From Nitrospirae bacterium GWF2_44_13 (GTDB taxonomy: Bacteria; Nitrospirota; Thermodesulfovibrionia; Thermodesulfovibrionales; UBA1546), in assembly GCA_001805105.1 (NCBI GenBank), contig MHEE01000013.1, positions 23,826-87,825 on the forward strand: a DNA stretch of 64,000 bases, written 5' to 3'. How positions within the stretch are numbered: the stretch's first letter is position 1; every line of letters starts with the position of its first letter. The translations under genes were made by a program, and so were the position numbers. The notes beneath the pieces are model-generated. The model did not search any database. It was not told the origin of the DNA and worked only from the letters and a program-made list of their open reading frames with translations. Positions 6,325-52,335 of this stretch are shown here, in pieces.

Positions 6325-6677
6325 AATTCCTTTTCTATTTTAGGGATTGTGGTCTTCAGAACAAATCTGCCCTTTCCGTAATTCCCCTCCGGCTTTATGA
6401 TGAGCGCAAAATAATAATCCTTATTTATCTTCCTCATTATAATTCCGCACTTATCGGAGATTATTGAAAATTCCCTTGCCTCGCCAAGACCGAGTGTCTC
6501 GGCGGCATTGCCTATGTCCTTAATCATTGCGGATGCCTCTGCGCTCAGGTCTTCCAGATTAATAAGCTTCTCGCTGGCATATTCCTCGACAGGCATGCCG
6601 TCCGAGCTTATTATCATAGCAGAAACTGCGCCGTCAACTTTCCCGACTGTTTCCTTAAGAACTTCTGAAAAGCTCAT
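6321..6677 (-). CDS. Roadblock/LC7 (MglB-like) domain protein
   Basis: ORF track. The pattern VDGAVSAMIISSDGMPV...SAEASAMI is typical of the Roadblock/LC7 fold. Start moved to the internal MSFSEV, which overlaps the end of the upstream TPR gene. Confidence 0.6.
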   Translation of the reverse strand: MSFSEVLKETVGKVDGAVSAMIISSDGMPVEEYASEKLINLEDLSAEASAMIKDIGNAAETLGLGEAREFSIISDKCGIIMRKINKDYYFALIIKPEGNYGKGRFVLKTTIPKIEKEF

Positions 6678-13834: not shown

Positions 13835-14347
13835 TTAGCGGTATCTTTTAACCTCAAACCTGAAGATTTTAACTTCCTCATTATCATATATGCCTGCCTT
13901 CATCTTTGCAATGCGGAGCTGCTCTTCAACGGTGTCAACACCTTCAAGGTCAGGCAAAAGCAATCCTTTCCTCTGCCCTCTGGAAACTATTACTCCGTAT
14001 TTTTTAGGATTAAGGTCTTCAATTCCCTTAACCTCTTCAGGCAGAGTCAGGACATCAACAGAATAGGCAAGCTCGCTCAGCTCTTCCTTTTGAATACAGT
14101 GGAATCTCGGGTCCTGTGTTGCGGCGCATATTGCGTTTCTTATAATCTCCCCGGCAATATTCTCGCAGGAAGGGATAAAAGTTCCTATGCAGCCTCTTAA
14201 TTCTCCGTGTTTTTTTATAGAGACAAATGCTCCTGCCTTTTGTTTCATCTCAGGCGTAAGCTCCGAGCTGCTCGGAGGCTCTATCACGCAGCGTTCATTA
14301 ACATAAGTCTCTACTGTCTGCCTTGCAAGTTGGACCAATGGATGCAT
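13835..14347 (-). CDS. amrA: AMMECR1-domain protein (AmmeMemoRadiSam system protein A)
   Basis: ORF track, 170 aa. [14 protein letters not shown] and [15 protein letters not shown] blocks are typical of AMMECR1. Confidence 0.85.
14261..14277. repeat. 17-nt perfect palindrome CTCCGAGCTGCTCGGAG inside amrA
   Basis: Read directly. Shares the 13-mer CCGAGCTGCTCGG with the copies at 14746 and 31504. Confidence 0.85.
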
Positions 14348-14348
14348 A

Positions 14349-15332
14349 TTATTTATCTCTTGCTATTGCATAGTCGGCAAGGCTCAGCATGGCGTCCTTA
14401 TCAGGAGAGTCAGGGAATATGGAAAGCTCCTCCTTTGCCTCATCAACAAGAGCCTGCGCCCTTTTGAGCGACTCTTCCAGAACGCTGTACTGCCTGAAGA
14501 GCGCAAGAATCTGCCTGAGTCCTTCTTCCGAGGGTTTTTCTATTATCCGTTTTATTTCCTCTTTCTCATCAGCCGAGACATTTTTTAAAAGATAAATAAC
14601 AGGCAATGTGATTTTCCCTTCCTCTATGTCCTTGCCGAGTTTCTTGCCAAGCTCGCTCTCTTCTGCCATGTAATCAAGAATATCATCCGCCATCTGAAAA
14701 GCCGTGCCTGCCTTGAGCCCGAACATTGCAAGGGCAGCTTCTTCAGCTCCGAGCTGCTCGGAGCTCAGCATTGCGCCAATCCTGCATGCCGCTGATATGA
14801 GCAGGCCTGTCTTGGCAGATATTATTTTTATATATTCGTCTTCTGTAATATTGATATCAGCGGTCTTCTGAAGCTGCAATATCTCTCCTTCTGTCATGCT
14901 TGTTGTCGCTTCTGAGAGGGATTCCATAATCTGCTGATTTCTGAATGAGACAACAACCCTCAGTGCATTTGAATAGAGATAATCTCCTACGAGAATGACA
15001 ATTTGATTCCCCCATACTGAATGGGCTGTCGGCCTGCCCCTGCGTGTATTTGCAGCGTCAACAACATCATCATGAAGCAGTGACGCCATATGTATCAGCT
15101 CAATAATGCTTGCAAGCATTATATGTTCATCGCCTTTATACCCTGCAAGCCTTGCGCTTGAAAGCAGGAAAAGCGGCCTTAATCTCTTGCCGCCGCTCTC
15201 AAGCAGATACCTGCCTATCAACGGTATAAGGGGAGCTTCGCTCTGGAACAGTCTTTCAAGCTTAGCCTCAACGAGACTTAATTCCCTCTCATACGCATCA
15301 AAAACCTTTTTAATGTCTGTTGTCTTAATCAT
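14349..15332 (-). CDS. polyprenyl diphosphate synthase (IspB/HepT-like, quinone side chain)
   Basis: ORF track, 327 aa. LLHDDVVD and MADDILD aspartate-rich (DDxxD) motifs. Confidence 0.9.
14746..14764. repeat. 19-nt perfect palindrome GCTCCGAGCTGCTCGGAGC inside the polyprenyl synthase gene
   Basis: Read directly across the line break 14751-14764. Confidence 0.85.
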
Positions 15333-15343
15333 GCCTCATTATC

Positions 15344-16402
15344 TCAGAGCCTGTACCCTTCAATGTTTGCGCTTTTTTTTGACAGCTTCTTCAGGTCTTT
15401 CGGCCTGAATGCGCCTTTTTCAGTGATAATTGCCGTCACATATTTTGCAGGAGTCACATCAAATGCCATATTTCTCACTTTCACGTTGTCAGGCGCAATC
15501 CGGCATCTGCCGAATATATGTGTAACTTCCTCTGCGCCTCTTTCTTCTATCGGAATCATATCGCCTGTCGGAATTGAAAAATCAATGCTGCTGAGTGGCG
15601 CGGCGACATAGAATGGTATTTTATGCTCTTTGCATAATACAGCTACAGAATACGTCCCGATTTTATTAGCCACATCTCCGTTCCTGACAGTTCTGTCAGT
15701 GCCGACAATGGCAAGGTCTATCTCGCCTTTTTTCATAAGCGCGCCCGCAGAGTTGTCTGTTATAAGCGTCACAGGCACGCCTGCCTGCATAAGCTCCCAT
15801 GCGGTAAGCCTCGCTCCCTGAAGCACTGGCCTTGTCTCATCAGCTATGACCTGTATCTTTTTCCCCTGTTCCATTGCTACAAATATCGGCGCTGTTGCCG
15901 TGCCGTACCCGCCTGTTGCAAGACTTCCTGCATTGCAGTGAGTGAGAACTGTATCGCCGTCTTTTATAAACTGCGCGCCCCATCTTCCTATTGCCTTATT
16001 AACCTCAATATCTTCTTCATGTATCTTTTTTGCCTCTTCAATGAGAAGTTCCTTTAACCGGGTAACCGATTCGCCGCGTCTCTCTTTTAAAAGCCTTTTT
16101 ATCCTCTCAACAGCCCATTTTATATTTACCGCCGTAGGCCTTGTTGAAAGCATGACATCAAATATGGCCTCTATGCCTTTTATGAAGTCCCTGTAATTCT
16201 TTGCCGTTATATCCTGTGCGCCAAGCGCAATTCCCATTGCCGCCGCAATGCCGATTGCAGGCGCGCCTCTTATCCAGAGTTTTTTTATGCCCTCCGCAAT
16301 GATATGATAATCAGCGCACTCTATGAATTTTACTTCCACGGGAAGAATGCTTTGGTCAAGCATTATAACCTTCCCGTCTCTCCACTCTATTGCCTTTACC
16401 AT
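15344..16402 (-). CDS. mtnA: S-methyl-5-thioribose-1-phosphate isomerase (eIF-2B alpha/beta/delta family)
   Basis: ORF track. IRGAPAIG, RPTAVN and CNAG..AT..GTA blocks. Start moved to MVKAIEW (ATG at 16402), which overlaps the upstream stop as TAATG. Confidence 0.85.
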   Translation of the reverse strand: MVKAIEWRDGKVIMLDQSILPVEVKFIECADYHIIAEGIKKLWIRGAPAIGIAAAMGIALGAQDITAKNYRDFIKGIEAIFDVMLSTRPTAVNIKWAVERIKRLLKERRGESVTRLKELLIEEAKKIHEEDIEVNKAIGRWGAQFIKDGDTVLTHCNAGSLATGGYGTATAPIFVAMEQGKKIQVIADETRPVLQGARLTAWELMQAGVPVTLITDNSAGALMKKGEIDLAIVGTDRTVRNGDVANKIGTYSVAVLCKEHKIPFYVAAPLSSIDFSIPTGDMIPIEERGAEEVTHIFGRCRIAPDNVKVRNMAFDVTPAKYVTAIITEKGAFRPKDLKKLSKKSANIEGYRL

Positions 16403-17643
16403 TAAATCTTTCCTCCCGCAGGCATTATGATTGTAACCACAAAAAATACAGCGAGACAGATTATAACCACTATTGTGCCCCACGATATGTAATTATAACT
16501 CTTCGGGTTTACATATTCTCCCATTATCTTTGCGTTGTTCACCAGCGACAGCGCATATATCAGAACAAAAGGCAGTAATATGCCGTTTACAACAGACGCC
16601 AGAATCATAAGGGAAACCAGTGGTGCGCCGGGAATCAATATCACCAACGCAGAAACAACTATGAGGGCGGTGTATATCCACATAAACTGAGGCGCTTCTC
16701 TGAATGTTTTATTGATGCCTGCTTCCCACCCCATTGCCTCGCATATGTAGTATGCTGTTGCCAGCGGGACTATTATCACTCCCAGAAGCGAACCATTGGC
16801 AAGGCAGAGAGCGAATATGAAAGACGCATATTCTCCAGCTAAAGGTTTGAGCGCAATTGCAGCCTCCGATGCCTCATTTATTCTTATGCCTGACGGAAAA
16901 AGCGTGGCTGCACATGTAACTATAATGAAAAAGGCAATTATGTCCGTTATAGAGCATCCCAGTATCACATCAAGCCTGGATGCTTTATAAGCCTCTTTTC
17001 TTATCCCCTTCTCTGCAATAGATGACTGGAGGTAAAACTGCATCCACGGTGTTATTGTTGTGCCTATTATTGCTATGCTAAGTATCGCATATTCGGAATC
17101 CCACTTTATTTGAGGCACAAATGTATTTTTGAAAACAGGAATCCAATCGGGTTTTGCCATAAACCCTGAGATAACATATCCGAAATATAAAAGGCACGCA
17201 AAGAGCAGCACTCTCTCAACTGCCCTGTAACTGCCTTTTGTAACAAGGAACCAAACTGACACCGCGCCAACAGGAACCATCACGTACTTGCTTAATCCGA
17301 GGATATCCATTGACGCTGCCCATCCTGCGAAATTAGCTAGAGTTGTGCCGAAATTTGCGATTAGAAGCGCTGCCATCATATAGAATGTTGATTTTACGCC
17401 ATAGTTTTCTCTTATGAGGTCTGAAAGCCCCTTGCCTGTGACAACTCCCATCCTTGCAACCATCTCCTGTATCACGACAAGCGCAACAGTCGTGGGTATC
17501 AAGGTCCAGAGCAATGAGTATCCGAACCTTGCGCCTGCCACAGAATAAGTGGTAATCCCGCTTGCATCATTATCTATATTTGCAGTTATGATGCCGGGCC
17601 CCATTACGCTCAGGAAGAGAAGAACTTTTTTGCTAAATCTCAT
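16402..17643 (-). CDS. NRAMP-related (SLC11 family) cation transporter with non-canonical metal-binding motifs
   Basis: ORF track, 413 aa, about 11 TM segments. Aligns to MntH (GPG..FGYSLLW), but DPGN is replaced by DASG and GAxxMPH by GTTITPW. Confidence 0.8.
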   Translation of the reverse strand: MRFSKKVLLFLSVMGPGIITANIDNDASGITTYSVAGARFGYSLLWTLIPTTVALVVIQEMVARMGVVTGKGLSDLIRENYGVKSTFYMMAALLIANFGTTLANFAGWAASMDILGLSKYVMVPVGAVSVWFLVTKGSYRAVERVLLFACLLYFGYVISGFMAKPDWIPVFKNTFVPQIKWDSEYAILSIAIIGTTITPWMQFYLQSSIAEKGIRKEAYKASRLDVILGCSITDIIAFFIIVTCAATLFPSGIRINEASEAAIALKPLAGEYASFIFALCLANGSLLGVIIVPLATAYYICEAMGWEAGINKTFREAPQFMWIYTALIVVSALVILIPGAPLVSLMILASVVNGILLPFVLIYALSLVNNAKIMGEYVNPKSYNYISWGTIVVIICLAVFFVVTIIMPAGGKI

Positions 17644-17664
17644 CAGACATACCTCTTAATATTT

Positions 17665-18927
17665 TTATACCCTTCTTCTCTTATGCTTTGCTGCCGGCGG
17701 CAGAATCCTGTCAATAATATCATCCACTGTAACAATGCCGAGGAGAAACCCTTCGCTGTCAACAACCGGAAGCGCAACAAGGTTATATTTCGATATAATA
17801 CCGGCAACCCGCATTTCATCAGTCTCAGGCGTGACTGTCTTGAACTTGGTTACCATAATATCCGACAGTTTTGTTTCAGGCGGAGAAAGCAGAATTTCCC
17901 TGAGCGACACCACCCCTTTGAGTTTCTCTTCAGCATCCGTTACATATATGTAATAGACGGTTTCAACTTCTTCTGCATCTCTTCTGAAACTTTCGATAGC
18001 CTCCTTTACGCTCGTTTCGGGCCTGTACGCTATAAACGCATTTGTCATAATACCGCCTGCTGTGTCTTCTTCATGCCCCATAAGTTCCTGAATGTCCTCT
18101 GCGTCCTCTTTTTCAAGACTGCCTAAAATTTCCTGCGCCTTTTCTGCGGACAGGTCGCTTATGACATCAGCAGCTTCATCAGGAGGCATCTCCTCTATGA
18201 TGTCAGCGGCTTTATCAGTATCCATCCCTGTTATTATTGCCGCCTGTGTCTCGGGTTCAAGTTCTGAAAGCGCCTCAGCAGCTGTTTCCGCATCAAGGCC
18301 CTTAAACAGAATAGCGCCCTCTTTGTGAGAAACCTGGCTTATTATCGCTGCCAGGTCCGCAGGATGCAGATCAGCCACCATCTGCCTTGGAACCGTGAGT
18401 GATATTGCAGTAAGTTTTGGTTCCAGCGGCTGTATATAATTCCAGCTTATAAGATTGTACGGCAGGTGCATCCTGAGAAGCCTCATCAGGTCTTCTCCGC
18501 CTCTCTCAACTCCGAGCCTCCTCATTATTCCCCTCATTCCCACATCAACGGCTAAAAGCACAGCCTCTGTGTTAAGCCCTTCGAGCTTGACGTCATTCAC
18601 CCTCACAACCTTTGCTCCATTTGCATCAACAATCTGCTTATCAAAAATATCCCTTGCCACAAGCAGGTCTTTCTCGCTGAGTTCGTAGGACTGAAGCCTT
18701 GCGCCGTAAATATTCGCGGCGATTATTCTTTTATTGAATATGCTCAAATCACTCCATTGGAGATTAAAGAGCTTTCTTTTCCTCTCGATAACAAGGTTGG
18801 AAATCTTCGGCAATGGCTCGCCTTTAACAACAACAAGGTCCTTCACCCTGCCGAGTTCTTCGCCTCTAGGGTCAAGGACAGGTTTTCTTAATATTTCACT
18901 TACAAAAAGTTCACTGAAAAAAGGCAT
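17665..18927 (-). CDS. soluble PRC-barrel / MgtE-N / CBS-pair protein (MgtE cytosolic sensor module without channel domain)
   Basis: ORF track, 420 aa. MgtE_N-like acidic helical repeat (DLHPADLAAII...DKAADIIEEMPPDEAADVISDL), then two CBS motifs. The protein ends after the CBS pair with no TM region. Confidence 0.75.
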   Translation of the reverse strand: MPFFSELFVSEILRKPVLDPRGEELGRVKDLVVVKGEPLPKISNLVIERKRKLFNLQWSDLSIFNKRIIAANIYGARLQSYELSEKDLLVARDIFDKQIVDANGAKVVRVNDVKLEGLNTEAVLLAVDVGMRGIMRRLGVERGGEDLMRLLRMHLPYNLISWNYIQPLEPKLTAISLTVPRQMVADLHPADLAAIISQVSHKEGAILFKGLDAETAAEALSELEPETQAAIITGMDTDKAADIIEEMPPDEAADVISDLSAEKAQEILGSLEKEDAEDIQELMGHEEDTAGGIMTNAFIAYRPETSVKEAIESFRRDAEEVETVYYIYVTDAEEKLKGVVSLREILLSPPETKLSDIMVTKFKTVTPETDEMRVAGIISKYNLVALPVVDSEGFLLGIVTVDDIIDRILPPAAKHKRRRV

Positions 18928-19043
18928 CTCTATCTCCTGGATATTATCGGGACTTAACTGCTAATTATAAAGTATAGCTTACTGGTTTTTATTTCAGCAA
19001 TACAGAAATGATACTGGTTAAAAGAAACGGGTAATAATTCAAA

Positions 19044-19892
19044 CTAAACGAATACCGGCTTTGACGATTTTTTTATTATCCCTCTCTCCTCTGCCATGTC
19101 CAGAAGTTTCCTTACGGCTCTTATGCCGTCATCGCCAAGGTCAATCGAATAATCATTGACATAGAGCTTGATATGTTCATCAATAACGGAATCATCAAGC
19201 TCCCGTGAATGCTCTTTTATATATTTCACCCCGAGCATCTCGGGGCGGCTCATTGCATATTGCACGCTTTCCCTTATAAGTCTCTCAATTTTGCTAATAA
19301 CATCTATCCCCAGACTTCTCTCTGCGATAATACAGCCCAATGGTATCGGCATATCTGTCTCCTTTTCCCACCACGCACCAAGGTCAATAATCTTTTTCAG
19401 CCCATAAGATGAATAAGTAAATCTTCCTTCATGGATTATCAGCCCTGCATCAGCTTTTCCCTCTTTAACCGCACCCATAATTTCATGAAACGGCATCGCT
19501 TTGACATTACTCCTGAAATCAGGGTCATAAAGCTGTAAGAGAAGATAAGCTGTGGTAAGCTCTCCGGGGATTGCTATTGTCTTTCCTTTCAAATCTTTCA
19601 TTTCACATTCTTTTGAAGCTACAACCAATGGCCCGCATCCCCTTCCAAGCGCTCCGCCTGAACGCAGAAGACAGTAATCATCCCTAAGATTCCCAAATGC
19701 GTTATATGAAACTTTTGTTATATCAAGCTCTCTTTTCATCGCACTCAGGTTGAGAGTTTCCACATCAAGCAGGATTTCCTTGAATTTTAAGCCACCTGTA
19801 TCTATCTTCCCATGCACAAGCGCATAAAAGATGAAGGTGTCATTCGGACAGGGGGAGTATCCAAGAGAAAGGGTTCTCATTTTAATGGACAT
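19044..19892 (-). CDS. mqnD: 1,4-dihydroxy-6-naphthoate synthase (futalosine pathway, MqnA/MqnD family)
   Basis: ORF track, 282 aa. LGYSPCPNDTFIFYALVHG N-terminal block, recalled as characteristic of MqnD. Confidence 0.7.
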   Translation of the reverse strand: MSIKMRTLSLGYSPCPNDTFIFYALVHGKIDTGGLKFKEILLDVETLNLSAMKRELDITKVSYNAFGNLRDDYCLLRSGGALGRGCGPLVVASKECEMKDLKGKTIAIPGELTTAYLLLQLYDPDFRSNVKAMPFHEIMGAVKEGKADAGLIIHEGRFTYSSYGLKKIIDLGAWWEKETDMPIPLGCIIAERSLGIDVISKIERLIRESVQYAMSRPEMLGVKYIKEHSRELDDSVIDEHIKLYVNDYSIDLGDDGIRAVRKLLDMAEERGIIKKSSKPVFV

Positions 19893-20518
19893 CCTTCACA
19901 AACAGGTTTTGGCTTGCAGAATTCTTTTCCTACTCTCACAAACAACGCATGATATTCGTTAAATAGCCTAACATCTTTTTTAAACGCAGAATGGAAAAGC
20001 TCCTGAAATTTATCGTATGCCTCATCATGCCCTAAAATATTATGCCTTGAGAGAACCCTTTTGGTATAAGCATCAATAACAAAAATGGGCTTATCAAGTA
20101 CATAGAGAAGAATAGAATCCGCTGTCTCAGGGCCCATGCCGTTAACATCAAGAAGTTTTTTCCTGAGTGAATGAATCTCTTCACTTCCCATCTTCTTCAT
20201 GCTTCCGTGATAAGCATTCATCAGAAAATTAATAAACGACTTAAGCCTTTTTGCTTTGATATTAAAATAACCTGACGGCTGTATTAATAAGGCAAGTTTT
20301 TTCACGGGCATATCATGAATAGCCTTTGCATTCAGGACTTTCTCTTTTTTTAGATTATTTATCGCCTTCTCAACGTTCCCCCAGTTTGTATTCTGCGTAA
20401 GTATTGCGCCGACTGCAACCTCAAAAGGCGTATCGCCCGGCCACCAGTTCTGCGGGCCAAAGGATTTGTAGAGTTTTTTGTAGATTGAGACAAGTTTTTT
20501 GTTTTTCATAACCTTCAC
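19877..20518 (-). CDS. HhH-GPD superfamily endonuclease III-related protein
   Basis: ORF track, 213 aa. ILTQNTNW, a helix-hairpin-helix LLDVNGMGPETADSILLY, and a C-terminal Cys cluster CKPKPVCEGCPL. Confidence 0.75.
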   Translation of the reverse strand: MKVMKNKKLVSIYKKLYKSFGPQNWWPGDTPFEVAVGAILTQNTNWGNVEKAINNLKKEKVLNAKAIHDMPVKKLALLIQPSGYFNIKAKRLKSFINFLMNAYHGSMKKMGSEEIHSLRKKLLDVNGMGPETADSILLYVLDKPIFVIDAYTKRVLSRHNILGHDEAYDKFQELFHSAFKKDVRLFNEYHALFVRVGKEFCKPKPVCEGCPLK

Positions 20519-22242: not shown

Positions 22243-22369
22243 ATGCGATAGCCCCTAATTTTATTAAATTATAGCAGTGATATGATGGATATGTCATTGA
22301 AAAACAGAACGCTGTTATAGACATGGGCGGCTGCCCATATTACCCCCCGCTATGTTATCATCATTAACT

Positions 22370-23110
22370 ATGGAAGAACGTTTACAGAAGATACTTGCAA
22401 AGATGGGGATTGCTTCAAGAAGAGGCGCTGAGGAGATTATCCTTGAAGAAAGGGTCACTATAAACGGAAAGGTTGCATCCCTCGGTATGAAGGCAGACCT
22501 TTCAAAAGACCATATAAAATTAGACGGAAAACTTCTAACAAAACCTGAGCCGAAGGTCTATCTAATGATAAACAAGCCAAGGGGAGTTATTACAACCCTT
22601 GCAGAAGAGGAAGAAAGGCCGACTATAAAAGATTATTTAAGGAATATCAGATACAGGGTTTTCCCTGTTGGCAGGCTTGACTTTGATTCCGAAGGGCTGC
22701 TGCTGCTTACAAATGACGGTGATTTCGCACATTCAATTTTGCACCCGTCAAAGAAGATGCCAAAAACATATCATGTTAAAATAAAAGGCATCATTGAGGA
22801 CGAAAAGATAGAGAAGCTGAGAAAAGGGATAAGGCTTAAGGACGGAGTTACCGCGCCTGCCAAAGTAAAGAAACTCAGAAAAGCAGAGGAAAATTGCTGG
22901 ATTGAGATTACTATCTATGAAGGTAAAAAAAGGCAGGTAAGGAGAATGTGCGAGCAGGTCGGGCACCCTGTGCTTAAACTCAAACGCATAAAAATCAACG
23001 GCATAGATATTGGAAATCTTCGCTCAGGAGAGTTAAGATATTTAACTCCGGATGAGGTTAAAAAAATAAAGAAAGAGGCAATGAATGACTCGGGACAAAA
23101 GCTGCGGTGA
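22370..23110 (+). CDS. rluB: rRNA pseudouridine synthase, RsuA/RluB family
   Basis: ORF track. S4 domain ([15 protein letters not shown]) and [17 protein letters not shown] catalytic block. Start (22352 or 22370) is uncertain. Confidence 0.85.
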
Positions 23111-24878
23111 ACTCAGGGAATCTGACATAGGCTCAAATCTGAGCCTTGCCGGATGGGTATTCAGAAGGAGAGACCACGGAGGCCTCATATTCATTGATCT
23201 CAGAGACAGGAGCGGACTCTGCCAGATTGTATTCAATCCTGACATTGCAGGTGATTCGCATACTAACGCGCATGACTTGAGGGCTGAATATGTCATAGCT
23301 GTGTCAGGCGAGATACGAAGAAGGCCTGAAGGCACGGAAAATCCCAATATCCCAACAGGCGCAGTTGAGATGTACGTCAACAAACTTGAAGTCCTGAACG
23401 AGTCATCACCATTGCCTTATAACATGGAAGAAGCCGCAGACGCAGGAGAGGCATTACGGCTTAAGTACAGATATCTTGACCTCAGAAGGCCTGAGATGCA
23501 GCAGAACCTTACTACGCGTCACAAGATTACAAAGGCAACAAGAGATTATCTCGATGAGAGGGGATTTCTTGAGATAGAAACACCGATGCTTACAAAATCC
23601 ACACCTGAAGGCGCAAGGGATTATCTTGTTCCGAGCAGGCTGAACCCAGGGCATTTTTATGCTCTCCCGCAATCACCTCAGCTTTTCAAACAGATATTGA
23701 TGGTTGCAGGAATGGAGAAGTATTTCCAGATTGTGAAATGTTTCCGTGACGAAGACCTAAGGGCAGACAGACAGCCTGAATTTACACAGATTGATTTGGA
23801 GATGTCATTTGTCGACAGAGAAGATGTCATTTCTCTCATGGAAGAAATGATGAAGAAGATTTTTAAAGATGTGCTTTCAATTGATATAGAAACACCTTTT
23901 CAGAGATTAAGTTTTCATGAATCAATGGAGAGATTTGGAAACGACAAGCCTGATATGAGATTCGGGCTTGAACTTAAGGATATGGCAGACCTTGCCATGA
24001 AAGGCACATTCAAGGTATTTCTTGATGCAATAAATGACAGGGGAATGGTAAAGGCGCTTAACGGCAAGGGCATGGCAGGGCTTTCAAGGAAAGATATAGA
24101 CACGCTAACAGCAGAAGCGCAGTCTTATGGCGCAAAAGGCCTTGCATGGATAAAGGTCAAGTCTGCCTCAGGCGGAGGTTTTGAATCTCCTATAGCCAAG
24201 TTCTTCCCTGAAGAGATACTTAAAAAGATGGCTGAAAGGCTTGAAGCAAAAGAAGGCGATTTAATGATGTTCGTAGCTGATAAGCCCAAGATTACTTATG
24301 ACGCCTTAAGCAGGCTCAGGCTTGCGCTCGGCGAAAGATTAAACCTCATTAAGCCGGGATATAAATTTGTATGGATAACTGATTTTCCGTTGCTTGAATG
24401 GGATGAAGAGGAAAACAGGTTTCAGGCAATGCACCATCCCTTCACATCACCCATGAATGAAGATATAGAAAAAATGCTTTCGGGAAATATTAACGATAAA
24501 GACCTTCTCTCATCATTAAAGGCAAAGGCGTATGACATTGTTTTAAATGGTTATGAGATTGGCGGCGGAAGCATCCGTATTCACAGGCAGGACGTTCAGA
24601 AAAAGATGTTTGATGTCCTGAATATCTCAGAGGAAGAGGCTAAGGTGAAGTTCGGCTTCCTGCTTGATGCGCTCCAGTATGGCGCTCCTCCGCATGGAGG
24701 CATCGCCCTCGGACTTGACAGGCTTGTGATGATAATGGTCGGAGCAACATCTATAAGAGACGTTATCGCATTTCCCAAGACACAGAAGGCTGTCTGCATG
24801 ATGTCCGGAGCGCCTTCAACAGTAGAACCAAAACAACTGAGAGAGCTTTACATAAAGACAGATGTGCCAATAGAATAG
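23085..24878 (+). CDS. aspS: aspartate--tRNA ligase
   Basis: ORF track, 597 aa. Class II motifs ([33 protein letters not shown]) and a bacterial-type insertion domain. Confidence 0.97.
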
Positions 24879-24894
24879 AGTAGTCGTACACATC

Positions 24895-25211
24895 ATGGAA
24901 CAGCCCAAATCAAGGAATGCAGCCCAAAAAATACCATAGCCTTAGTTGTTATCACATTCCTTATCGCTGCAATCATAATCACAAGATTTTACTTAAAGGC
25001 AATAGGCATCCTGATAATATCTGCGGCTGTTCTCATCTATGTTTGGGTATCTTTTGCAAAACTGCCTAAGGAAGAAAAAAGAGCTGTGTTTGAAGCAATG
25101 GAGAAAAGCAATAAAACATCTCTCGGCAAAGCCGTTCAGTTCTTGCAATATCTGATTTACGCCTTAATCGCCGTTGCAGTAATCAGATTGTTTATTGGAC
25201 AGCCGAAATAG
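24895..25211 (+). pseudogene. small two-TM membrane protein ORF with apparent frameshift at an A6 run (or non-canonical start)
   Basis: Manual reading. ATG at 24895 opens MEQPKSRNAAQKIP*, which stops at 24937. The -1 frame continues from ~24930 as NTIALVVITFLIAAIIITRFYLKAIGILIISAAVLIYVWVSFAKLPKEEKRAVFEAMEKSNKTSLGKAVQFLQYLIYALIAVAVIRLFIGQPK*, ending at 25211. The ORF track lists no >=60 aa ORF here, consistent with a missing in-frame start. Confidence 0.35.
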
Positions 25212-25261
25212 ATCAAATAAAAGCAACACGTTCAAGGCTCAGCATTTATTAATATTTCCCC

Positions 25262-25291
25262 TTGTCAAGACATTCTCCACATGGATATAAT
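25262..25291 (+). promoter_or_regulatory. sigma70-like promoter TTGTCA-N18-TATAAT upstream of the sensor kinase
   Basis: Read directly. -35 TTGTCA at 25262-25267 and -10 TATAAT at 25286-25291. Similar architecture at 27634 and 54543. Confidence 0.45.
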
Positions 25292-25354
25292 AAAGCCAAT
25301 ACAGCCATTTGGAAGACACTATACCATGCATCAGGGGTAAAAGGATATTCTTAT

Positions 25355-27604
25355 ATGAAAAGCAAATCCGCAGAAAAACTTCTGAAAGATATTCAAAACC
25401 TTGAAATCCTTGAATCCATAGGTGATGCTGTCAGCATTCAAGATACTAACTTTAAGATTATCTTCCAAAATAAAATCAGTAAGGGGATTGTTGGGTACCA
25501 TGTTGGGGAATATTGCTACGAAGCCTATACCCTTAGAGATAAAACCTGTAAGGACTGTCCTCTGGCTCCAGTTTTTGCTGACGGTAAAACCCATACAGTA
25601 GAAAGAAACAAGCCGTCTGATAAAGGAATGGTTTATCTTGAAATCACAGCCTCGCCTCTAAGGAATTTAAAGGGGGAAATCATAGCAGGAATAGAGGTCA
25701 TGAGAGATATAACTAACCGCAAAGAAACTGAAGAAAGATTAAAGAATAGCGAGGAAAAGTTCAGAAATCTCTCAGAAAACTCTCCAAACATGATTTTTAT
25801 CAATAAAAAGGGTAGAGTGGTTTATGCCAATAAAAAATGTGAAGAAATTATGGGCTATAAGAAAGAAGAGTTTTACTCGCCTGACTTCAACTTTCATGTA
25901 TTGATCGCACCGCAATATCTTGATACAGTCAGCGGAAATTTTCAGAGGCATCTTAAAGGAGAAGAAGTCCCTCCTTATGAGTATACAGTTGTAACCAAAC
26001 AGGGCACGGTTATAGAGGTAATAATCACCACAAAATTAATAAATTACGAAGGAGATACCGCCATTCTTGGAATAATCACTGATATCTCAGAGCAGAAGAA
26101 GACTGAGGAGACGCTGCGGGAAAGCGAAGCACGCTTTCGCAAATTGGTTGAGACAGCCTTTGAAGGTATTGCGATTGCTGAAAATGGCATCTTCTTAGAA
26201 GCAAATAAACTGTTCGCTAAATTGTTTGAATATACATTACCCGAGATAATAGGACTACACATATCTAAGTTAGTAGCCCCAGAAAGTCTTGTTGATGTAA
26301 TGCAAAAGATTCAATCAGGATACGATAGACCTTACGAAGCTGTCTGCGTGACAAAAAATGGGAAACATTTTCCAGTGGAAGCCTGCGGCAAAGCAGTAAT
26401 TTACAACGGCCGGAAAGCAAGAATAACAGCTCTGAGAGACATATCAGGACGCAAAAGATCAGAAGAAGAATCCATAAAGATTCAAAAACTTGAATCGCTC
26501 GGCATACTCGCAGGCGGAATTGCGCACGATTTTAACAATCTTCTTACTGCTATACTTGGCAATGTTTCTTTAGCAAAAATGCATATAAATCCTGAAGATA
26601 AAATTTACGAACTATTGACAGAAGCTGAAAAAGCATCCATGAGGGCAAAAGACCTGACACAGCAACTGCTCACCTTTTCAAAAGGAGGAGAACCCGTCAA
26701 GAAAACTGTTTTGTTAAAGGGGCTTGTACACGATACGTCTTGCTTTGCCCTTAGAGGTTCAAAAACAAAAAGCGAATGCCGGTTTCCTGATAATCTCTGG
26801 CCTGTTGAAATTGACGAAGGTCAGATAACACAGGTGTTTCATAATCTTATCATAAATGCAGACCATGCCATGCCCGAGGGCGGAGTCGTTGATATACATG
26901 CTGAAAATATCACATCAACAGCTGACAAAGCAGGAGCACTACTCATGCCCGGCAAATATGTAAAAATCTCTGTGCATGACAATGGTGTTGGAATACCGAA
27001 AGATCATCTTCAGAAAATATTTGACCCTTATTTCACAACAAAACAGATGGGCAGCGGACTCGGACTTACAACAGCATATTCAATCATCAGAAAACATGAC
27101 GGGGCAGTAACTGTAGAATCTGAACTGGGTAAAGGGACTATTTTAAATATATATTTGCCGGCATCTTCAAAGGAAATTATTTTCCATGAGGAGATAACTG
27201 ACACTGTTTCTTCAGGCAAAGGGAAAATACTGGTAATGGATGACGATGATATGGTCAGGGATGTCGCAGGCGCGATTTTAAGAAGCTTAGGGTATAAGGT
27301 TGAATTTGCAAAAGACGGCACTGAAGCTATTGAACTTTACCAAAAAGCAATAATATCAGGAGAATCGTTTGATGTGGTTATAATGGATCTAACCATCCCA
27401 GGAGGGATGGGCGGAAAAGATGCAATAAAGAAACTGCTGAACATTGACCTGCAGGTTAAGGCGGTTGTATCAAGCGGTTATTCCAATGATCCCATAATGT
27501 CAAACTATAAAGCCCATGGATTCAGCGCAGTAATATCCAAGCCCTACAATGTTATTGATATGAGTAAGACATTGCATGAATTAATAAATAGTTGTATTCA
27601 CTAA
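25355..27604 (+). CDS. hybrid sensor histidine kinase (PAS repeats - HisKA - HATPase - receiver)
   Basis: ORF track. Several PAS/PAC segments, H-box GGIAHDFNNLL, N/G boxes, and a C-terminal receiver (ILVMDDDD...VIMDLTIPGG). Start moved to MKSKSAEK. Confidence 0.9.
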   Translation: MKSKSAEKLLKDIQNLEILESIGDAVSIQDTNFKIIFQNKISKGIVGYHVGEYCYEAYTLRDKTCKDCPLAPVFADGKTHTVERNKPSDKGMVYLEITASPLRNLKGEIIAGIEVMRDITNRKETEERLKNSEEKFRNLSENSPNMIFINKKGRVVYANKKCEEIMGYKKEEFYSPDFNFHVLIAPQYLDTVSGNFQRHLKGEEVPPYEYTVVTKQGTVIEVIITTKLINYEGDTAILGIITDISEQKKTEETLRESEARFRKLVETAFEGIAIAENGIFLEANKLFAKLFEYTLPEIIGLHISKLVAPESLVDVMQKIQSGYDRPYEAVCVTKNGKHFPVEACGKAVIYNGRKARITALRDISGRKRSEEESIKIQKLESLGILAGGIAHDFNNLLTAILGNVSLAKMHINPEDKIYELLTEAEKASMRAKDLTQQLLTFSKGGEPVKKTVLLKGLVHDTSCFALRGSKTKSECRFPDNLWPVEIDEGQITQVFHNLIINADHAMPEGGVVDIHAENITSTADKAGALLMPGKYVKISVHDNGVGIPKDHLQKIFDPYFTTKQMGSGLGLTTAYSIIRKHDGAVTVESELGKGTILNIYLPASSKEIIFHEEITDTVSSGKGKILVMDDDDMVRDVAGAILRSLGYKVEFAKDGTEAIELYQKAIISGESFDVVIMDLTIPGGMGGKDAIKKLLNIDLQVKAVVSSGYSNDPIMSNYKAHGFSAVISKPYNVIDMSKTLHELINSCIH

Positions 27605-27633
27605 CCTCCTCAACGTCTTTAATTTTCATGCCC

Positions 27634-27663
27634 TTGTCAATCCCCGCTCTGCACGGATATAAT
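27634..27663 (+). promoter_or_regulatory. sigma70-like promoter TTGTCA-N18-TATATA upstream of leuS
   Basis: Read directly. CCCTTGTCAA...GGATAT context shared with the 25262 promoter. AGAGGAG RBS downstream. Confidence 0.4.
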
Positions 27664-27696
27664 AAGTGCTATATTTCATAGAGGAGAAAAACTATC

Positions 27697-30234
27697 TTGT
27701 ACGAAAGATATGACCCCAAAAAAGTTGAGCTGAAATGGCAGAAGTACTGGGCTGAGAAAAATATTTTTAAAACAGAACCCGATGCTTCAAAAAAGAAATT
27801 CTACTGCCTTGAAATGTTCCCCTACCCTTCAGGGAAAATACACATGGGCCATGTCAGAAATTATGCAATCGGCGACGTAATAGCAAGATACAAGAGGATG
27901 AGAGGGTTCAATGTCATCCATCCGATGGGATGGGATGCATTTGGAATGCCTGCTGAGAACGCCGCGATAAAAGAGGGAATCCACCCTGCAAAATGGACCT
28001 ACGAAAATATCACCTACATGAAAAAACAGCTTAATCAGTTGGGGCTCAGCTATGACTGGGACAGAGAGGTTACAACATGCAGCCCTGATTACTACAAGTG
28101 GAATCAGTGGTTCTTCCTGAAGATGTATGAGAAGGGGATTGCATACAGGAAATCATCATTTGTGAACTGGTGCCCTTCATGCATGACTGTTCTTGCAAAT
28201 GAGCAGGTTATTGACAATGGATGCTGGAGATGCGATACAGCGGTAATCAAGAAAGAGTTGGAGCAGTGGTTTTTTCGTATTACGCATTATGCAAAAGACC
28301 TCCTGAAGGCGTGTGATGAGCTTAAGGGCTGGCCTGAAAAAGTTATCTTAATGCAAAAGAACTGGATTGGAAAGAGCGAGGGGCTTGAGGCTGATTTCAA
28401 AGTTGCAGGAAGGGACGAAAGAATCCGTATATTCACTACAAGGGCCGACACTTTATTTGGAGCCACATTTGTATGCCTTGCGCCTACACACCCTTTATCA
28501 GAAAAACTCGTTGTTGATAAAGAAGCTCTTAAGAAGGTCAAGGAACACTACGGCAAAGAAGATGAAAAAATTGGGCTCTTTACAGGACACTACGCAACCA
28601 ATCCCGCGAATGATGAGAAGATTCCAATTTATATAGCAAACTTCGTTCTGATGGAATACGGCACAGGAGCAATAATGTCCGTTCCTGCTCATGACCAACG
28701 GGATTTTGAATTTGCAAAAAAGTACAATCTGCCAATACGGGTGGTAATAGAACCAGAGCAGAAGTCAAAACTTACCGAAGCGTACGAAGATGAAGGCATT
28801 CTTGTTGATTCAAATTCTTTTAGCAAGCTAAGAAGTGATGTTGCAAGAATAGAGATAGCAAAGCACATAGAGAAAAAAGGCTTAGGCAAGAGGGTAATAA
28901 ATTACAAGCTCCGTGACTGGGGAATATCAAGGCAGAGATACTGGGGAACGCCGATACCGATAATTTATTGCGAGAAATGCGGTGTTGTTCCAGTCCCTGA
29001 ACAAGAACTGCCGGTAATCCTTCCAGAGGATGTGAAATTCACAGGCACAGGCGGGTCACCACTTGCAGAGTCAGAAAAATTTGTAAATACAATTTGTCCA
29101 AAATGCAAAGGCAAGGCAAGGCGAGAGACTGATACAATGGACACATTTGTTGATTCATCATGGTATTTCATTGCATATTGCGTTGACAATGGAAAGATTA
29201 ATTTCCAATCCCTAACCCCCAATCCCCAATCCCCAATAAGTTACTGGATGCCTGTTGACCAGTATGTCGGCGGTGTTGAACACGCAGTGCTTCATCTCCT
29301 CTATTCAAGATTTTTTACCCGTGTTATAAAAGACCTTGGAATCATTAACTCTCCGGAGCCTTTCACAAACCTTCTCACGCAGGGAATGGTATGTAAAGAA
29401 ACGTTGAAATGTCCTGAGCATGGCTGGCTCTTACCTGAAGATGTTAAGGATGAGAAGTGCATAAAATGCGGAAAGGCTGTTGACATAGGACGGGTTGAAA
29501 AGATGTCAAAATCAAAAAAGAATGTCATTGACCCTGACCATCTTATAAACAGATACGGGGCAGACACATCAAGGCTCTTTTCGCTCTTTGCTGCGCCGCC
29601 TGAAAGAGACCTTGAATGGTCAGACCAGGGGGTTGAGGGTGCATACAGATTCCTGAATAGGATATGGGGACTCTTATATAAAAATAAATTCAAAATTCAA
29701 AATTCAAAATTCAAAATTGAGGAGCTATCAAGCTATCAGCCATCAGCCGTGCGCCTTCTACGAAAAACACATCAGACCATAAAGCGGGTTACAAACGACA
29801 TGGAGCGCGAATACCACTTCAATACAGCGATTGCAGCGCTCATGGAGCTTGTGAATGATCTATGTTCGTTTGAGCCGAAATCAGACGACGACTGGAAAGT
29901 ATTCAGATTCGGCATTGAAGCGCTTCTGCTTTTGCTTTCTCCATTTTCTCCGCACATATCGGAAGAACTGTGGGAATCTATAGGCAACAAAAAAGGCATA
30001 CTTGAACAGAAATGGCCTTTATGGGATGAGAATATCGCAAAAGAAGAAGAAATAGAACTCGTTATTCAGATTAACGGCAAAGTAAAGGCAAAGATTATGA
30101 TAGCTGCGGGGCAGGCGGACGATGAAGTCAGGGGGAAAGCTCTTGGCGAACCCAGGATACAGGAAATTATAAAGGGGAAAACACTGAAAAAAGTCTTTAT
30201 TGTTAAAGGCAAACTTGTTAACATAGTAATATGA
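27697..30234 (+). CDS. leuS: leucine--tRNA ligase
   Basis: ORF track, 845 aa. HMGH and KMSKS class I motifs and a CP1 editing domain. TTG start according to the ORF track. Confidence 0.97.
29203..29237. repeat. in-frame heptanucleotide array inside leuS (TTCCAAT CCCTAAC CCCCAAT CCCCAAT CCCCAAT)
   Basis: Read directly. Encodes [12 protein letters not shown], between [10 protein letters not shown] and YWMPVDQY. Confidence 0.85.
29681..29751. repeat. in-frame heptanucleotide arrays inside leuS (AAAATAA ATTCAAA x4 ATTGAGG, then AGCTATCA AGCTATC AGCCATC AGCCGTG)
   Basis: Read directly. Encodes [24 protein letters not shown]. Confidence 0.85.
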
Positions 30235-30239
30235 CAAGA

Positions 30240-30740
30240 ATGAAAGTTAAAAGTTTTATGTTACTGTCTACTGTCTACTGTCTACTGTTTACTCTCTCCA
30301 GCTGCGGTTATACGCTGCAGGGCAGAGACACGCTGCCCTTTACCTCTGTCAAAATAGGCAGGATTGAAAACAAAACATTTGAACCGAAATTGGAAGATAA
30401 ATTCCAGAAAGCGCTTGCTGATGAACTCATAAGAAACGGAATAATGATTTCAAATAGCGCAAAACATATAATAAACGGCACTATAGATGACCTGAAGCTA
30501 AGCCCCCTCGCAGAAAAAGAAGGCGTAGCATCCGAATATCAGGTAATTATAAAAGCCAAATTTTTTCTTACATCCCCCGACGGGAAGGTCAAAGAGTTAA
30601 GAAACACAGGAGTTTTTATTGTATCTTTTCCAGGTTCGGGCAATATAGAAAGCTTAGTCGCGGCAAAAGAGCAGGCAACAGAAACTGCTATGAGAAATCT
30701 GGCTTCTGAGATACGTGCCGGAATAGTCTATGGCATGTAG
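30240..30740 (+). CDS. lptE: LPS-assembly lipoprotein LptE
   Basis: ORF track. Lipoprotein signal peptide with lipobox LSSC followed by GYTLQGR. Conserved leuS-lptE-holA gene order. Start (30231 or 30240) is uncertain. Confidence 0.7.
   Translation: MKVKSFMLLSTVYCLLFTLSSCGYTLQGRDTLPFTSVKIGRIENKTFEPKLEDKFQKALADELIRNGIMISNSAKHIINGTIDDLKLSPLAEKEGVASEYQVIIKAKFFLTSPDGKVKELRNTGVFIVSFPGSGNIESLVAAKEQATETAMRNLASEIRAGIVYGM
30241..30296. repeat. heptanucleotide array forming the lptE signal-peptide coding region (TGAAAGT TAAAAGT TTTATGT TACTGTC x3 TACTGTT TACTCTC)
   Basis: Read directly. Translates to KVKSFMLLSTVYCLLFTL. Confidence 0.85.
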
Positions 30741-31637
30741 ATGAGCATTAAAACCTTTTTGCAGGAAATAGACAAGGGACTGACCTCGCCTGCCTATCTT
30801 CTATATGCGGATAACGAGTACCCCATAGAAGAAGCTTTGTCTGCAATCAAAAAAACAATCCCTGAGACAGAGATGGATTTTAATTTCAATGTTTTTGACA
30901 TGGACTCTGCCGACAGTATCCCGGCTGTATGGGAAATAATTGACACCTTAAATACAATCTCTTTTTTCGGAAGCCGCAGGTATGTGGTCGTCAGGAATCT
31001 TCAAAAAATTTCTGCAAAGGAATTTAAAAAATTCCAATCCTACACAGCAAATCCGTCACCCAATTCGGCGCTTTTAATGTCCCATACCGGCACATTGAAA
31101 AAAGAAATGAAAGAAAGCACGAAAGGATTAAAGGCCATCTGCCTTGATATACGGGGAAATGACCTGTCTGTATGGATAAAAGAAAAGGCAAGGCAAAAGG
31201 GGATTACGATTAAAGATGACGCTGTGGAATACCTAATCGGAGTTGCCGGAGACGACATAGGGCTTCTGTCTTCGGAAATTGAAAAACTTGCATCATTTGG
31301 GAATGAGGCAATTACAATAAACAGCATAAAAGAAATTGTTGAGGGCAGCAGGGATTACAGCGTATTTGACCTCACAAATGCGCTGAGAGAAAGGAATGCC
31401 GAAAAAGTTCTCAGAATATACAAAAAACTCTCCGAGACAACAGAACCGTATAATCTCTTAGGCGCAATAAACTGGCACTACAGCAAGATGTCCGTGCAGG
31501 CAACCCCGAGCTGCTCGGGGCAACGGAAAGACTTTTCAAGAGCATTTGAAATCCTGAACGATGCCGATATACAGATAAAAACCTCAGGCGGCGCCTATCC
31601 GATGGAACACCTGCTTATCAGGCTGCTGCGTTTTTGA
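30741..31637 (+). CDS. holA: DNA polymerase III subunit delta
   Basis: ORF track, 298 aa. Position after leuS-lptE and typical size/helical pattern. Sequence similarity judged from memory only. Confidence 0.7.
   Translation: MSIKTFLQEIDKGLTSPAYLLYADNEYPIEEALSAIKKTIPETEMDFNFNVFDMDSADSIPAVWEIIDTLNTISFFGSRRYVVVRNLQKISAKEFKKFQSYTANPSPNSALLMSHTGTLKKEMKESTKGLKAICLDIRGNDLSVWIKEKARQKGITIKDDAVEYLIGVAGDDIGLLSSEIEKLASFGNEAITINSIKEIVEGSRDYSVFDLTNALRERNAEKVLRIYKKLSETTEPYNLLGAINWHYSKMSVQATPSCSGQRKDFSRAFEILNDADIQIKTSGGAYPMEHLLIRLLRF
31504..31520. repeat. 17-nt perfect palindrome CCCCGAGCTGCTCGGGG inside holA
   Basis: Read directly. Shares the 13-mer CCGAGCTGCTCGG with the copies at 14261 and 14746. Confidence 0.85.
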
Positions 31638-31914: not shown

Positions 31915-32015
31915 TTCCTTCCTCCTTATAGGTCTGAGACCCCGAAAAATTTGGTCGTCTTTTTTAACATAATTTTAGTTATAAAATCAATCTTTTTATG
32001 TTAAAATTTTACACT

Positions 32016-42000: not shown

Positions 42001-42068
42001 TTGTCATTTCTGCGAAAACAGGAATCTGTATTTTCTCATCCGGATTCCCGCTTTTGCGGGAATGACAA
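42001..42068. repeat. REP-like hairpin doublet in inverted orientation (intact copy ATTCCCGC-TTTT-GCGGGAAT plus degenerate copy)
   Basis: Read directly. 42001-42026 is TTGTCATTTCTGCGAAAACAGGAATC. The reverse complement of 42041-42068 is TTGTCATTCCCGCAAAAGCGGGAATCCG. Identity is 21/26. Confidence 0.7.
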
Positions 42069-52296: not shown

Positions 52297-52335
52297 AAAA
52301 GGGCCCGCCCCGATAATATCGGGACAAGCCCTTTT
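52297..52335. terminator. bidirectional terminator between the convergent ribL-like gene and atpE
   Basis: Outer stem AAAAGGGC/GCCCTTTT encloses inner stem CCCGATA/TATCGGG. T-runs follow on both strands. Confidence 0.7.

Follow-up and report, generated by a model that had tools for sequence, protein, structure and literature searches.

In-frame palindromic patches in genes of an uncultured Nitrospirota bacterium and their likeness to the heads of tagged hairpin repeats

Results and discussion

The 64,000-nt stretch of DNA analysed here (hereafter the window; positions 23,826 to 87,825 of contig MHEE01000013.1, Nitrospirae bacterium GWF2_44_13, whose sequence stems from the groundwater Nitrospirota metagenome-assembled genomes (MAGs) of the Rifle site) contains the 13-nt palindrome CCGAGCTGCTCGG exactly three times, at 14263-14275, 14749-14761 and 31506-31518. 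The palindrome is a real, non-random and evolutionarily active feature, and codon alignments with relatives showed each copy to be a derived, lineage-specific and in-frame replacement of host bases. Judged by its sequence, the repeat kind to which it appears to belong is an already known one, the Ssn-related motif (SRM)/NTS-dRS3/CGTC-type REP, here in a clade of Thermodesulfovibrionales (Nitrospirota). With about even confidence, we propose that the 13-mer represents the GC-rich apex, or head, of tagged hairpins belonging to one subfamily, and that such heads are copied into genes by a short-patch process templated by microhomology. The intragenic copies would then most likely be without a function of their own.

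Palindrome copies in the window

The initial annotation of this stretch had reported the three copies and had held them improbable by chance. Both points were confirmed (copies starting at 14263, 14749 and 31506), Markov models of order 1 to 4 trained on the window giving 0.7-1.4e-3 expected copies, i.e., about 0.001, and a probability of about 1e-10 for three or more. No copy of the 13-mer was found in 100 dinucleotide shuffles of the window, and the triplet stayed significant when corrected for all conceivable 6+1+6 palindromes, of which there are 4^7. The first copy (CTCCGAGCTGCTCGGAG, 14261-14277) lies in amrA (AMMECR1; 13835-14347, - strand), where it encodes P-SSS-E in the context PPSSSE; the second (AGCTCCGAGCTGCTCGGAGCT, 14745-14765) lies in a polyprenyl synthase gene, here called ispB (14349-15332, - strand), and is read as SSEQLGA; the third (CCCCGAGCTGCTCGGGG, 31504-31520) lies in holA (30741-31637, + strand) and is read as TPSCSG. 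The host genes and the peptides PSSSE, SSEQLG and PSCSG were thus as first annotated. The symmetry extends beyond the 13-mer to 17 nt in amrA and holA, in agreement with the perfect palindromes of 17-19 nt first described, but to a perfect 21 nt rather than 19 nt in ispB. Likewise, the copies do occupy both strands and two frames, but the amrA and holA copies share one palindrome frame on opposite strands and only the ispB copy uses a second one.

A hairpin census added a variant copy in mqnD (CCCCGAGCATCTCGGGG, 19229-19245; gene 19044-19892, - strand; RPEMLG), whose 7-bp arms are those of the holA copy and whose loop differs, and a mismatch search added a degenerate copy (CCGGGCAGCTCGGG, 12659-12672; HPELPG) in a hypervariable acidic region of a DnaJ/TPR gene (12154-13818, - strand), with one transition at the sole A:T pair of the arm. 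Five copies were hence counted in the 81 kb examined; they fall within 17-19 kb, and none was added by the flanking 17 kb, of which 10 kb lie upstream and 7 kb downstream of the window. The copies are not assembly artefacts, since the exact holA and ispB proteins, patch included, were recovered from at least 23-24 contigs (at least 24 for ispB) in independent ENA, NCBI, JGI and Logan assemblies. Stem folding energies ranged from -6 to -14 kcal/mol, and stop codons are absent from every frame of the palindrome.

The palindrome was also sought beyond these loci. A scan of genome contigs with CYCCGAGCTGCTCGGRG returned at least 120 matches, and those listed were mostly single chance matches in high-GC genomes (Actinomycetota and similar); the only useful one among them, also the sole match in Nitrospirota, was the locus L046 discussed below (loci of relatives are designated by L and a number). 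In viral contigs, 24 single matches were found, about the chance expectation. The only Rfam match in the window was a tRNA, and a literature search for the 13-mer returned nothing relevant. An origin from CRISPR repeats was rejected, the type I-C repeats of relatives being unrelated in sequence.

Comparison with relatives

Relatives' loci were collected by a metagenome scan with the ispB protein (15 loci, 58-90% identical) and by look-ups of holA homologues (six loci), the codon alignments spanning relatives 58-97% identical. At the ispB site, all 14 relatives carry AGC ATC AGC CCT TCT GCT or variants of it and the window alone reads AGC TCC GAG CAG CTC GGA GCT, so that 12 nt became 15 nt (+3 nt). 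At the amrA site, relatives have CCT CCT GCC GAG, and the window and L158 have CCT CCG AGC AGC TCG GAG (+6 nt). At the mqnD site, AGG GAT GAG CCT in L159, L160, L161 and L166 corresponds to CCC GAG ATG CTC GGG in the window, L155 and L156 (+3 nt). Finally, at the C-terminus of holA, most homologues are 296 aa long and have AAC GAC ACG CGC (NDTR), and a subclade with 298 aa has ACC CCG AGC NGC TCG GGG, i.e., TPS[C/S/R/H]SG, with 12 nt replaced by 18 nt (+6 nt) and a palindrome centre that is T, A or C depending on the relative.

At each of these sites, about 5-15 nt of a variable loop gave way to a palindromic stretch of 11-18 nt, so that the gene gained 3 or 6 nt net. Over tens of nt the flanks are almost the same, yet 8-10 of the roughly 12 patch bases differ, and these alignments point to single complex events in weakly conserved protein loops. 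No intermediate between the unpatched and the patched state was present in any relative examined. Inverted repeats already present at the target sites were considered as seeds and rejected, as they were inconsistent and reached 1-3 bp at most.

As the initial annotation had put it, the conservation is at the level of nucleotides and not of proteins: orthologues carry unrelated sequence of other lengths at these sites, and the copies use two frames. A conserved peptide, the explanation on which that reading could have failed, was ruled out for the three copies by the differing codons of relatives and by the two frames. Of the three interpretations then offered, a miniature hairpin inserted in frame, in the manner of the Rickettsia palindromic elements (RPE), came closest: orthologues do lack the palindrome, as had been anticipated, and its sequence is that of an SRM/NTS-type head. 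However, the copies are not plain insertions of 5-6 codons but replacement patches, for which codon alignments gave a net difference of only 1-2 codons, and they are tag-less apical fragments rather than whole units.

These alignments also bear on the possibility that each palindrome was formed locally, either by template switching on a quasipalindrome or as a coincidence of coding, the codons of P-E-x-L-G (CCC GAG NNN CTC GGG) being self-complementary. Hairpin perfecting is active in the lineage (see below), six of the nine independent sites are in the P-E-x-L-G frame, and one look-alike of the palindrome is indeed explained by its peptide. This look-alike, CCGAGTGTCTCGG at 6490-6502 (CCGAG-N3-CTCGG), and its L159 orthologue were excluded from the family, as they encode a conserved AETLG peptide without any indel in relatives. 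Yet the three window copies lie in two frames and on both strands, relatives' sites are unrelated to them in sequence and length, the patch codons are unusually GC-rich for a genome with 44% GC (the value of the window), only about 1e-3 copies are expected, and identical 17-19-mers could not arise from different local templates. Local formation or coincidence is already refuted for the three window copies, and we give it almost no credence.

The concomitant loss of target bases and gain of foreign bases is also typical of break repair with filler DNA. The patches might accordingly be filler captured in resected double-strand breaks, or scars of an imprecisely deleted inverted-repeat element, such as a MITE (miniature transposable element with inverted repeats) or an insertion sequence; the clade does have MITE-like elements with 12-nt terminal inverted repeats, one of which contains the palindrome. 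Both holA and ispB are essential in model bacteria, and a large insertion followed by excision is implausible in such genes. Moreover, a scar would be expected to derive from the termini (GTCAT...ATGAC) and not from an internal head, in the data examined no full-length element was present at any patch site and the patches never contained terminal-repeat bases, and the window showed neither Ku nor LigD. We therefore rate filler capture or excision scars as very improbable.

Spread and turnover of the copies

Further copies were found at other sites in relatives, and new copies arose at different sites in genomes that are about 90% identical. In L158, a zinc-ribbon gene carries CCCCGGGCAGCTCGGGG (+6 nt) and a TPR gene carries a copy read within EPSPEQLGEE, in place of which 41 nt of unrelated sequence stand in the window. 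At the exact position of this latter palindrome, the window TPR gene (6655-7752, - strand) shows an imperfect 24-nt tandem duplication (CCCTCCACACAGACGACGGGTAAA / CCCTCCACACAAACGGCGGGTGAA, 7225-7270), and this site is a hotspot of length change. In L181, CCC GAG CAA CTC GGG at the N-terminus of holA replaces AGC ATC CCA ACT (12 nt to 15 nt), and L178 carries a copy in intergenic DNA. No copy was found in the distant relatives L160-L165, L182 and L183 (about 20 kb each), nor in some 50-60 kb around the glutamate dehydrogenase homologue of L046 in relatives 80-90% identical, a region with different neighbours that is uninformative for the species of the window.

The arms of the palindrome are intact around the loops CTG, CAG, CCG, ATG and CAA. 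The three degenerate copies (window 12659-12672, L158 zinc-ribbon gene and L181 holA) share the same A>G/T>C change at the only A:T pair of the arm. The initial annotation had stressed a common central T on the + strand, which does hold for the three window copies but not for the family: in window orientation, the centre is T at four of nine independent sites and A at the other five, and the T shared in the window is a coincidence. In these nine sites, the palindrome is read as P-E-x-L-G in six and as P-S-x-S-G/E in two, and one is intergenic.

Both the window and L158 carry the amrA patch, which L155, L156 and L157 lack. This distribution conflicts with the local tree, (window,(L157,(L158,(L155,L156)))), in which the grouping of the window with L158 received a bootstrap of 1/200, and the conflict implies recurrent gain or exchange of very short tracts. 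Besides, for a second palindrome type in amrA, a single-nucleotide polymorphism (SNP) 20 nt away co-segregates with the patch, which shows that patch alleles also move by homologous recombination.

The intact arms with variable loops (T, A or C in holA; ATG and CAA elsewhere), the clustering of copies within 17-19 kb of 81 kb and the spread of patch alleles among lineages by recombination could also be read as marks of a functional recognition site, i.e., a 15-bp inverted repeat for a dimeric DNA-binding protein (matS/parS/NBS-like) or an uptake or recombination signal, built up by selection or molecular drive. The initial annotation had offered a protein site or such a signal among its interpretations; both are disfavoured by the fast turnover of sites at about 90% identity, where positions are not conserved, by a density far below that of uptake sequences and by the lack of any strand or replication bias (the GC skew tracks gene orientation only). 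In addition, at least three different palindrome sequences behave alike, degenerate copies persist and this head is found at the apex of repeats of a known selfish or REP-like kind. A recognition site was hence considered improbable. Known sites of this type (parS, matS, NBS, SBS) lie in a single chromosomal domain and keep their positions in close relatives, whereas the presence of the palindrome varies between close genomes and one copy lies in an unrelated region of another MAG. DNA uptake sequences (DUS/USS), for their part, belong to naturally competent organisms, occur about once per 1-2 kb, have a non-palindromic core and originate by point substitution, unlike the five palindromic copies in 81 kb, which are indel patches.

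Tagged hairpin repeats of the clade

The assignment of the palindrome to a repeat kind relies first on L046, an unrelated region of the MAG UBA8922 (43.5% GC), where the motif occurs as a 25-nt perfect palindrome in intergenic DNA. With its flanks it reads TGTCATTCC-CCCGAGCTGCTCGGG-GGAATC, which is a full tagged repeat with the studied palindrome at its apex. The literature, when searched for this scaffold, led to the Ssn nucleases described in 2025 (PMC11893778), where the Neisseria Transformation Sequence (NTS) is CGTCATTCCCGCGMAVGCGGGAATCYRG and a generalised Ssn-related motif takes the form of a degenerate pattern. This pattern, HGTCWY-N(0-2)-YYVSBRH-N(0-5)-WNVSBRG-N(0-2)-RNCYNB, comprises a 5' GTCW tag, a hairpin and a 3' tail (PMC11893778). 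It was matched by the L046 unit TGTCATTCCCCCGAGCTGCTCGGGGGAATC (L046:2260-2292), and also at L158:9846, L161:7564, L183:5801 and window 42040-42067, the units of L161 and L183 being identical to the Neisseria NTS save for the first base (TGTCATTCCCGCGAAAGCGGGAATCCAG). A single match in the window compares with 0.2 in shuffles. No match was obtained at the intragenic copies (14261, 14745, 31504, 19229 and 12659): the window copies within genes consist of the head only and have neither the GTCW/GTCA tag nor the lower stem ATTCC/GGAAT nor a 3' tail.

The window match at 42040-42067 (- strand) is a full-length intergenic tagged hairpin repeat of NTS/SRM type, TGTCATTCCCGCAAAAGCGGGAATCCGG, which documents the repeat superfamily for the genome of the window. 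Its partner unit, TGTCATTTCTGCGAAAACAGGAATCTG (42002-42028, + strand), was read directly and is inverted relative to it, forming a REP-dimer-like pair. The pair (42002-42067) is located between genes ending at 41959 and 42161, and the unit 42040-42067 differs from the Neisseria NTS consensus chiefly in its first base and loop. Repeats near-identical to the NTS are by themselves a noteworthy find in Nitrospirota.

Across about 425 kb of partly orthologous clade loci, the scaffold TGTCATTCC-[head]-GGAATC(C) / GTCATTCC occurs 19 times with 11 different heads, and related scaffolds (GTCATTGC...GCAATC and GTCATTCT...AGAAT) are also found; full units of the clade mostly begin with TGTC or GTCA. A second type of scaffold, GTCATTGCGAG...GGCAATC, bears the L178 copy as its head, within a MITE-like element of about 125 nt. 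This element (L178:13839-13961) has 12-nt terminal inverted repeats, GTCATTGCGAGT / ACTCGCAATGAC, and is absent from the window, L180 and L181, while units of the GTCATTGCGAG type recur in L156, L164, L180, L183, L184 and L189.

The same head appears in three unrelated contexts, in coding loops and in the scaffolds GTCATTCC and GTCATTGCGAG. This is what an autonomous miniature mobile palindrome would produce, if a sequence-specific enzyme with its gene elsewhere in the genome (an Ssn-like GIY-YIG nuclease, a RAYT/IS200-type HUH transposase or similar) cut and pasted the 15-19-nt hairpin into single-stranded DNA at genes, intergenic DNA and the loops of other hairpins. The coexistence of several distinct head families, as in REP families, and the rapid turnover between close relatives also agree with such mobility. 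However, the target bases are replaced and not added to, with neither target-site duplications nor constant junctions at the aligned patch sites, and the copies are devoid of the conserved 5' tag required by known Ssn and RAYT enzymes (PMC11893778). Furthermore, a candidate enzyme gene was lacking in the examined loci: a crude motif scan of the clade loci detected no GIY-YIG-like open reading frame, and no PF01541 was listed in their gene tables. An autonomous mobile palindrome was therefore held to be unlikely.

Proposed copying process

In the process that we propose, the source would be either single-stranded DNA that contains a head and is cut back to the GC-rich stem-loop, its stable part, or a nascent strand that takes an existing copy as its new template. 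The new site would be written through microhomologies of 1-3 nt at a replication fork or a repaired gap, about a dozen bases being replaced, and selection would retain only those events that preserve the frame in tolerant loops. Subsequently, hairpin-templated correction of the flanks may make the hairpin longer, and patch alleles may pass between lineages by homologous recombination. The supply of donors could be boosted, although this is speculation, by cleavage of single-stranded DNA beside tagged repeats by an Ssn-type nuclease.

The ispB copy, being restricted to the window, is the youngest, and amrA, at a distance of 486 bp, is the only other place with its rare T/A-flanked subtype. The two copies are identical over 19 nt, and the borders C and GCT are common to both sites; the ispB copy looks as if it had been copied from that in amrA. 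More generally, copies tend to be close neighbours, at distances of 486 bp, 604 bp, 2.0 kb and 3.1 kb, with a rough combined P of 0.009, the loci having been chosen around known copies. The patch starts coincide with the expected end of the AT-rich lower stem (TCCG... / CCCC...), as would be expected if fragments of single-stranded DNA were trimmed to the stable stem-loop.

An established type of bacterial mutation, termed SPDIR, exchanges short patches (3 to about 100 bp) for ectopic single-stranded DNA at microhomologies and is extremely rare in the one organism in which it was measured (bioRxiv 10.1101/2023.11.22.568220). In SPDIR, as would hold for the present patches, ectopic sequence takes the place of a few to about 100 bp, with microhomology at the borders and a net length that varies. 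The ispB patch matches a donor 486 bp away and has C/GCT borders, and the other patches point to no unique donor. SPDIR donors are, by contrast, essentially random, and such events are extremely rare, whereas one hairpin sequence was reused here repeatedly, which implies a biased supply or stability of the donor.

Several points weigh against this copying process. The rarity of SPDIR means that some booster or biased donor supply is needed here, and the examined loci showed neither an Ssn/GIY-YIG nor a RAYT gene. One tagged repeat only (L046) was encountered with exactly this head, and the search that brought it up was one for the palindrome; no tagged repeat with TCCGAG or TCCGCC heads was found in the clade loci. 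The main doubt concerns the direction, which could be the opposite, a free palindrome being patched into the heads of repeats and into genes alike. The microhomologies are very short and convincing for one event only. No copies were found in the 17 kb flanking the window or, in more distant relatives, in about 50-60 kb of another region. Finally, seven of the nine sites are coding and six of them are in one frame (P-E-x-L-G), which may nevertheless be compatible with a filter imposed by selection.

Hairpin-templated mutagenesis, the step invoked for lengthening, appears from sequence comparison to be active in the lineage. In L178, two flank substitutions extend the holA palindrome to a perfect 25 nt. 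Within ispB of the window, ATAATGCTTGCAAGCATTAT (15103-15122) is a 20-nt perfect palindrome, at which relatives have an imperfect inverted repeat with 2-4 mismatches; such a change bears the textbook signature of quasipalindrome correction by template switching, as read from the aligned relatives.

Relation to known systems

Among described elements, SRM/NTS repeats and dRS3, which are substrates of the GIY-YIG single-strand nuclease SsnA (PMC11893778), are like the present repeats in that the clade repeats match the SRM pattern and the L046 SRM bears the studied head. The ssnA gene codes for a single-domain GIY-YIG protein (cd10448) of about 94 aa, and the repeats typically flank it. About half of the dRS3 palindromes in Neisseria lack NTS flanks (PMC11893778), and palindromes without such flanks are found here as well. 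However, the three window copies fail the SRM pattern and sit inside genes as in-frame replacements. The SRM superfamily overlaps the CGTC-tagged REPs, which include Rickettsia RPE-4 and RPE-6 (PMC3733652, PMC11893778), and CGTC-type REPs are occasionally intragenic, notably in replication and repair genes (PMC3733652). The likeness lies in short palindromes that are in frame and absent from orthologues, with holA among the hosts here. Instead of the whole tagged units or dimers of known cases (about 25-150 bp, 8-80 codons), the present lineage shows an apex of 15-21 nt that replaces host bases with a net gain of 1-2 codons, and no CGTC tag is present on the intragenic copies. Similarly, the classical Rickettsia palindromic elements are in-frame elements of about 100-150 bp, as opposed to palindromes of 15-25 nt with a net gain of 3-6 nt in what is here a free-living host.

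The REP/BIME elements associated with RAYT are comparable in being GC-rich hairpins, with several families per genome, inverted dimers (as at 42002-42067) and intergenic copies after genes. They differ by their GTAG tag, imperfect stems, extragenic location and a RAYT gene that REPs flank; the present copies have no GTAG, their stems are perfect and they are mostly intragenic, no RAYT having been seen in the examined loci. Mitochondrial GC clusters of yeast and organellar palindromes of Volvox are also GC-rich and spread, by a mechanism that is called unknown, in an AT-richer genome and at times into coding regions (PMC4478555, PMC2670323). They are nonetheless organellar, longer (about 30-50 nt or more) and unrelated in sequence. 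As a palindrome that is over-represented inside genes in several frames, the cyanobacterial HIP1 (GCGATCGC) is also similar. HIP1 is 8 bp long, exists in thousands of copies and arises by substitutions, not by indel patches. What is new here is best filed as tag-less heads of SRM/NTS type written in frame into genes of uncultured Nitrospirota, the repeat kind itself being already known.

Other palindromes and neighbouring features

Other heads share this behaviour. A second type, CCCGAT-AWT-ATCGGG, is found tagged in L158, where the head belongs to full repeats, and untagged in the window. There, CCCGATAATATCGGG (52309-52323) is intergenic within a terminator-like hairpin, and a truncated head at 18939-18953, also intergenic, is 4 nt shorter than that of L156 and absent in L155. 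A third type, with the consensus TCCGCC-N3-GGCGGA, is represented by TCTGCCTCAGGCGGA (24162-24176, + strand), an in-frame patch of +12 nt in aspS (23085-24878) read as SASGG, which is absent from L180; the same 15-mer is patched, also with +12 nt, into amrA of L158, L159 and L161. Sites of this consensus (L158:11349, L159:11343 and 11536, L161:11343, L162:7530) are phylogenetically patchy and linked to a nearby SNP. Overall, GC-rich 6+3+6 palindromes were about 5-fold in excess of the shuffle expectation in clade loci, a figure inflated by orthologous redundancy. The 10-mer TCAGGCGGAG occurs five times in the window (433, 17876, 19652, 24168 and 61378). It was rejected as a family, as the copies in mqnD and secY have 16 nt in common and are both translated as SGGAL, probably a coding coincidence, and only the aspS copy is a patch.

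The window also contains five tandem arrays of heptanucleotides, of about 4.6-5.1 copies each, at 9260-9292, 29205-29237, 29686-29718, 30262-30297 and 54066-54097. Their units are AAGTTAA, CCAATCC, AAATTCA, TACTGTC and ACTGTGA, and all are coding (dapF, leuS twice, the signal peptide of lptE and one other). The dapF and lptE arrays are kept in relatives with variation in copy number or sequence, and the leuS region is hypervariable, L180 having different heptamer units. Downstream of rpsT, the intergenic gap is a variable island (L180:11300-16600, L183:11200-20891, L182:11400-20891), the equivalent of which in the window (about 31915-32000) is empty. The island holds type I-C CRISPR-Cas with an array in L180 and L183, and type I restriction-modification with Fic and PIN/MazE in L182. 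In L181, a gene of the bAvd/23S-rRNA-IVP family (L181:332-694; accessory protein of diversity-generating retroelements) adjoins mqnD and has no counterpart in the window.

Significance

The interest of the palindrome lies in the copying mechanism exposed by its copies. How hairpins of REP, NTS and dRS3 type multiply is a long-standing question, especially for the CGTC/SRM class, for which we know of no transposase. The present lineage gives dated and polarised events: single 15-nt patches set apart genomes that are about 90% identical, and for each site the ancestral sequence is known. Such events show directly where the junctions are, how near the donor lies and how far the copying extended. 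From a practical point of view, such patches produce spurious insertions in alignments of housekeeping markers (holA, ispB, aspS) of uncultured Nitrospirota. If head-only patches derive from the single-stranded DNA of tagged repeats, they would link Ssn nucleases to a mutational output and, were this process true, templated microindels would be frequent enough to shape protein loops in nature. In a bolder form, which we regard as rather doubtful, the heads of Ssn/NTS-type repeats would be the smallest self-propagating bacterial DNA, released as single strands by Ssn nuclease or by hairpin processing at the fork, trimmed to 15-19 nt and rewritten at forks, including into essential genes. Such propagation, if real, would amount to a natural and biased short-patch "oligo recombination" that reshapes protein loops.

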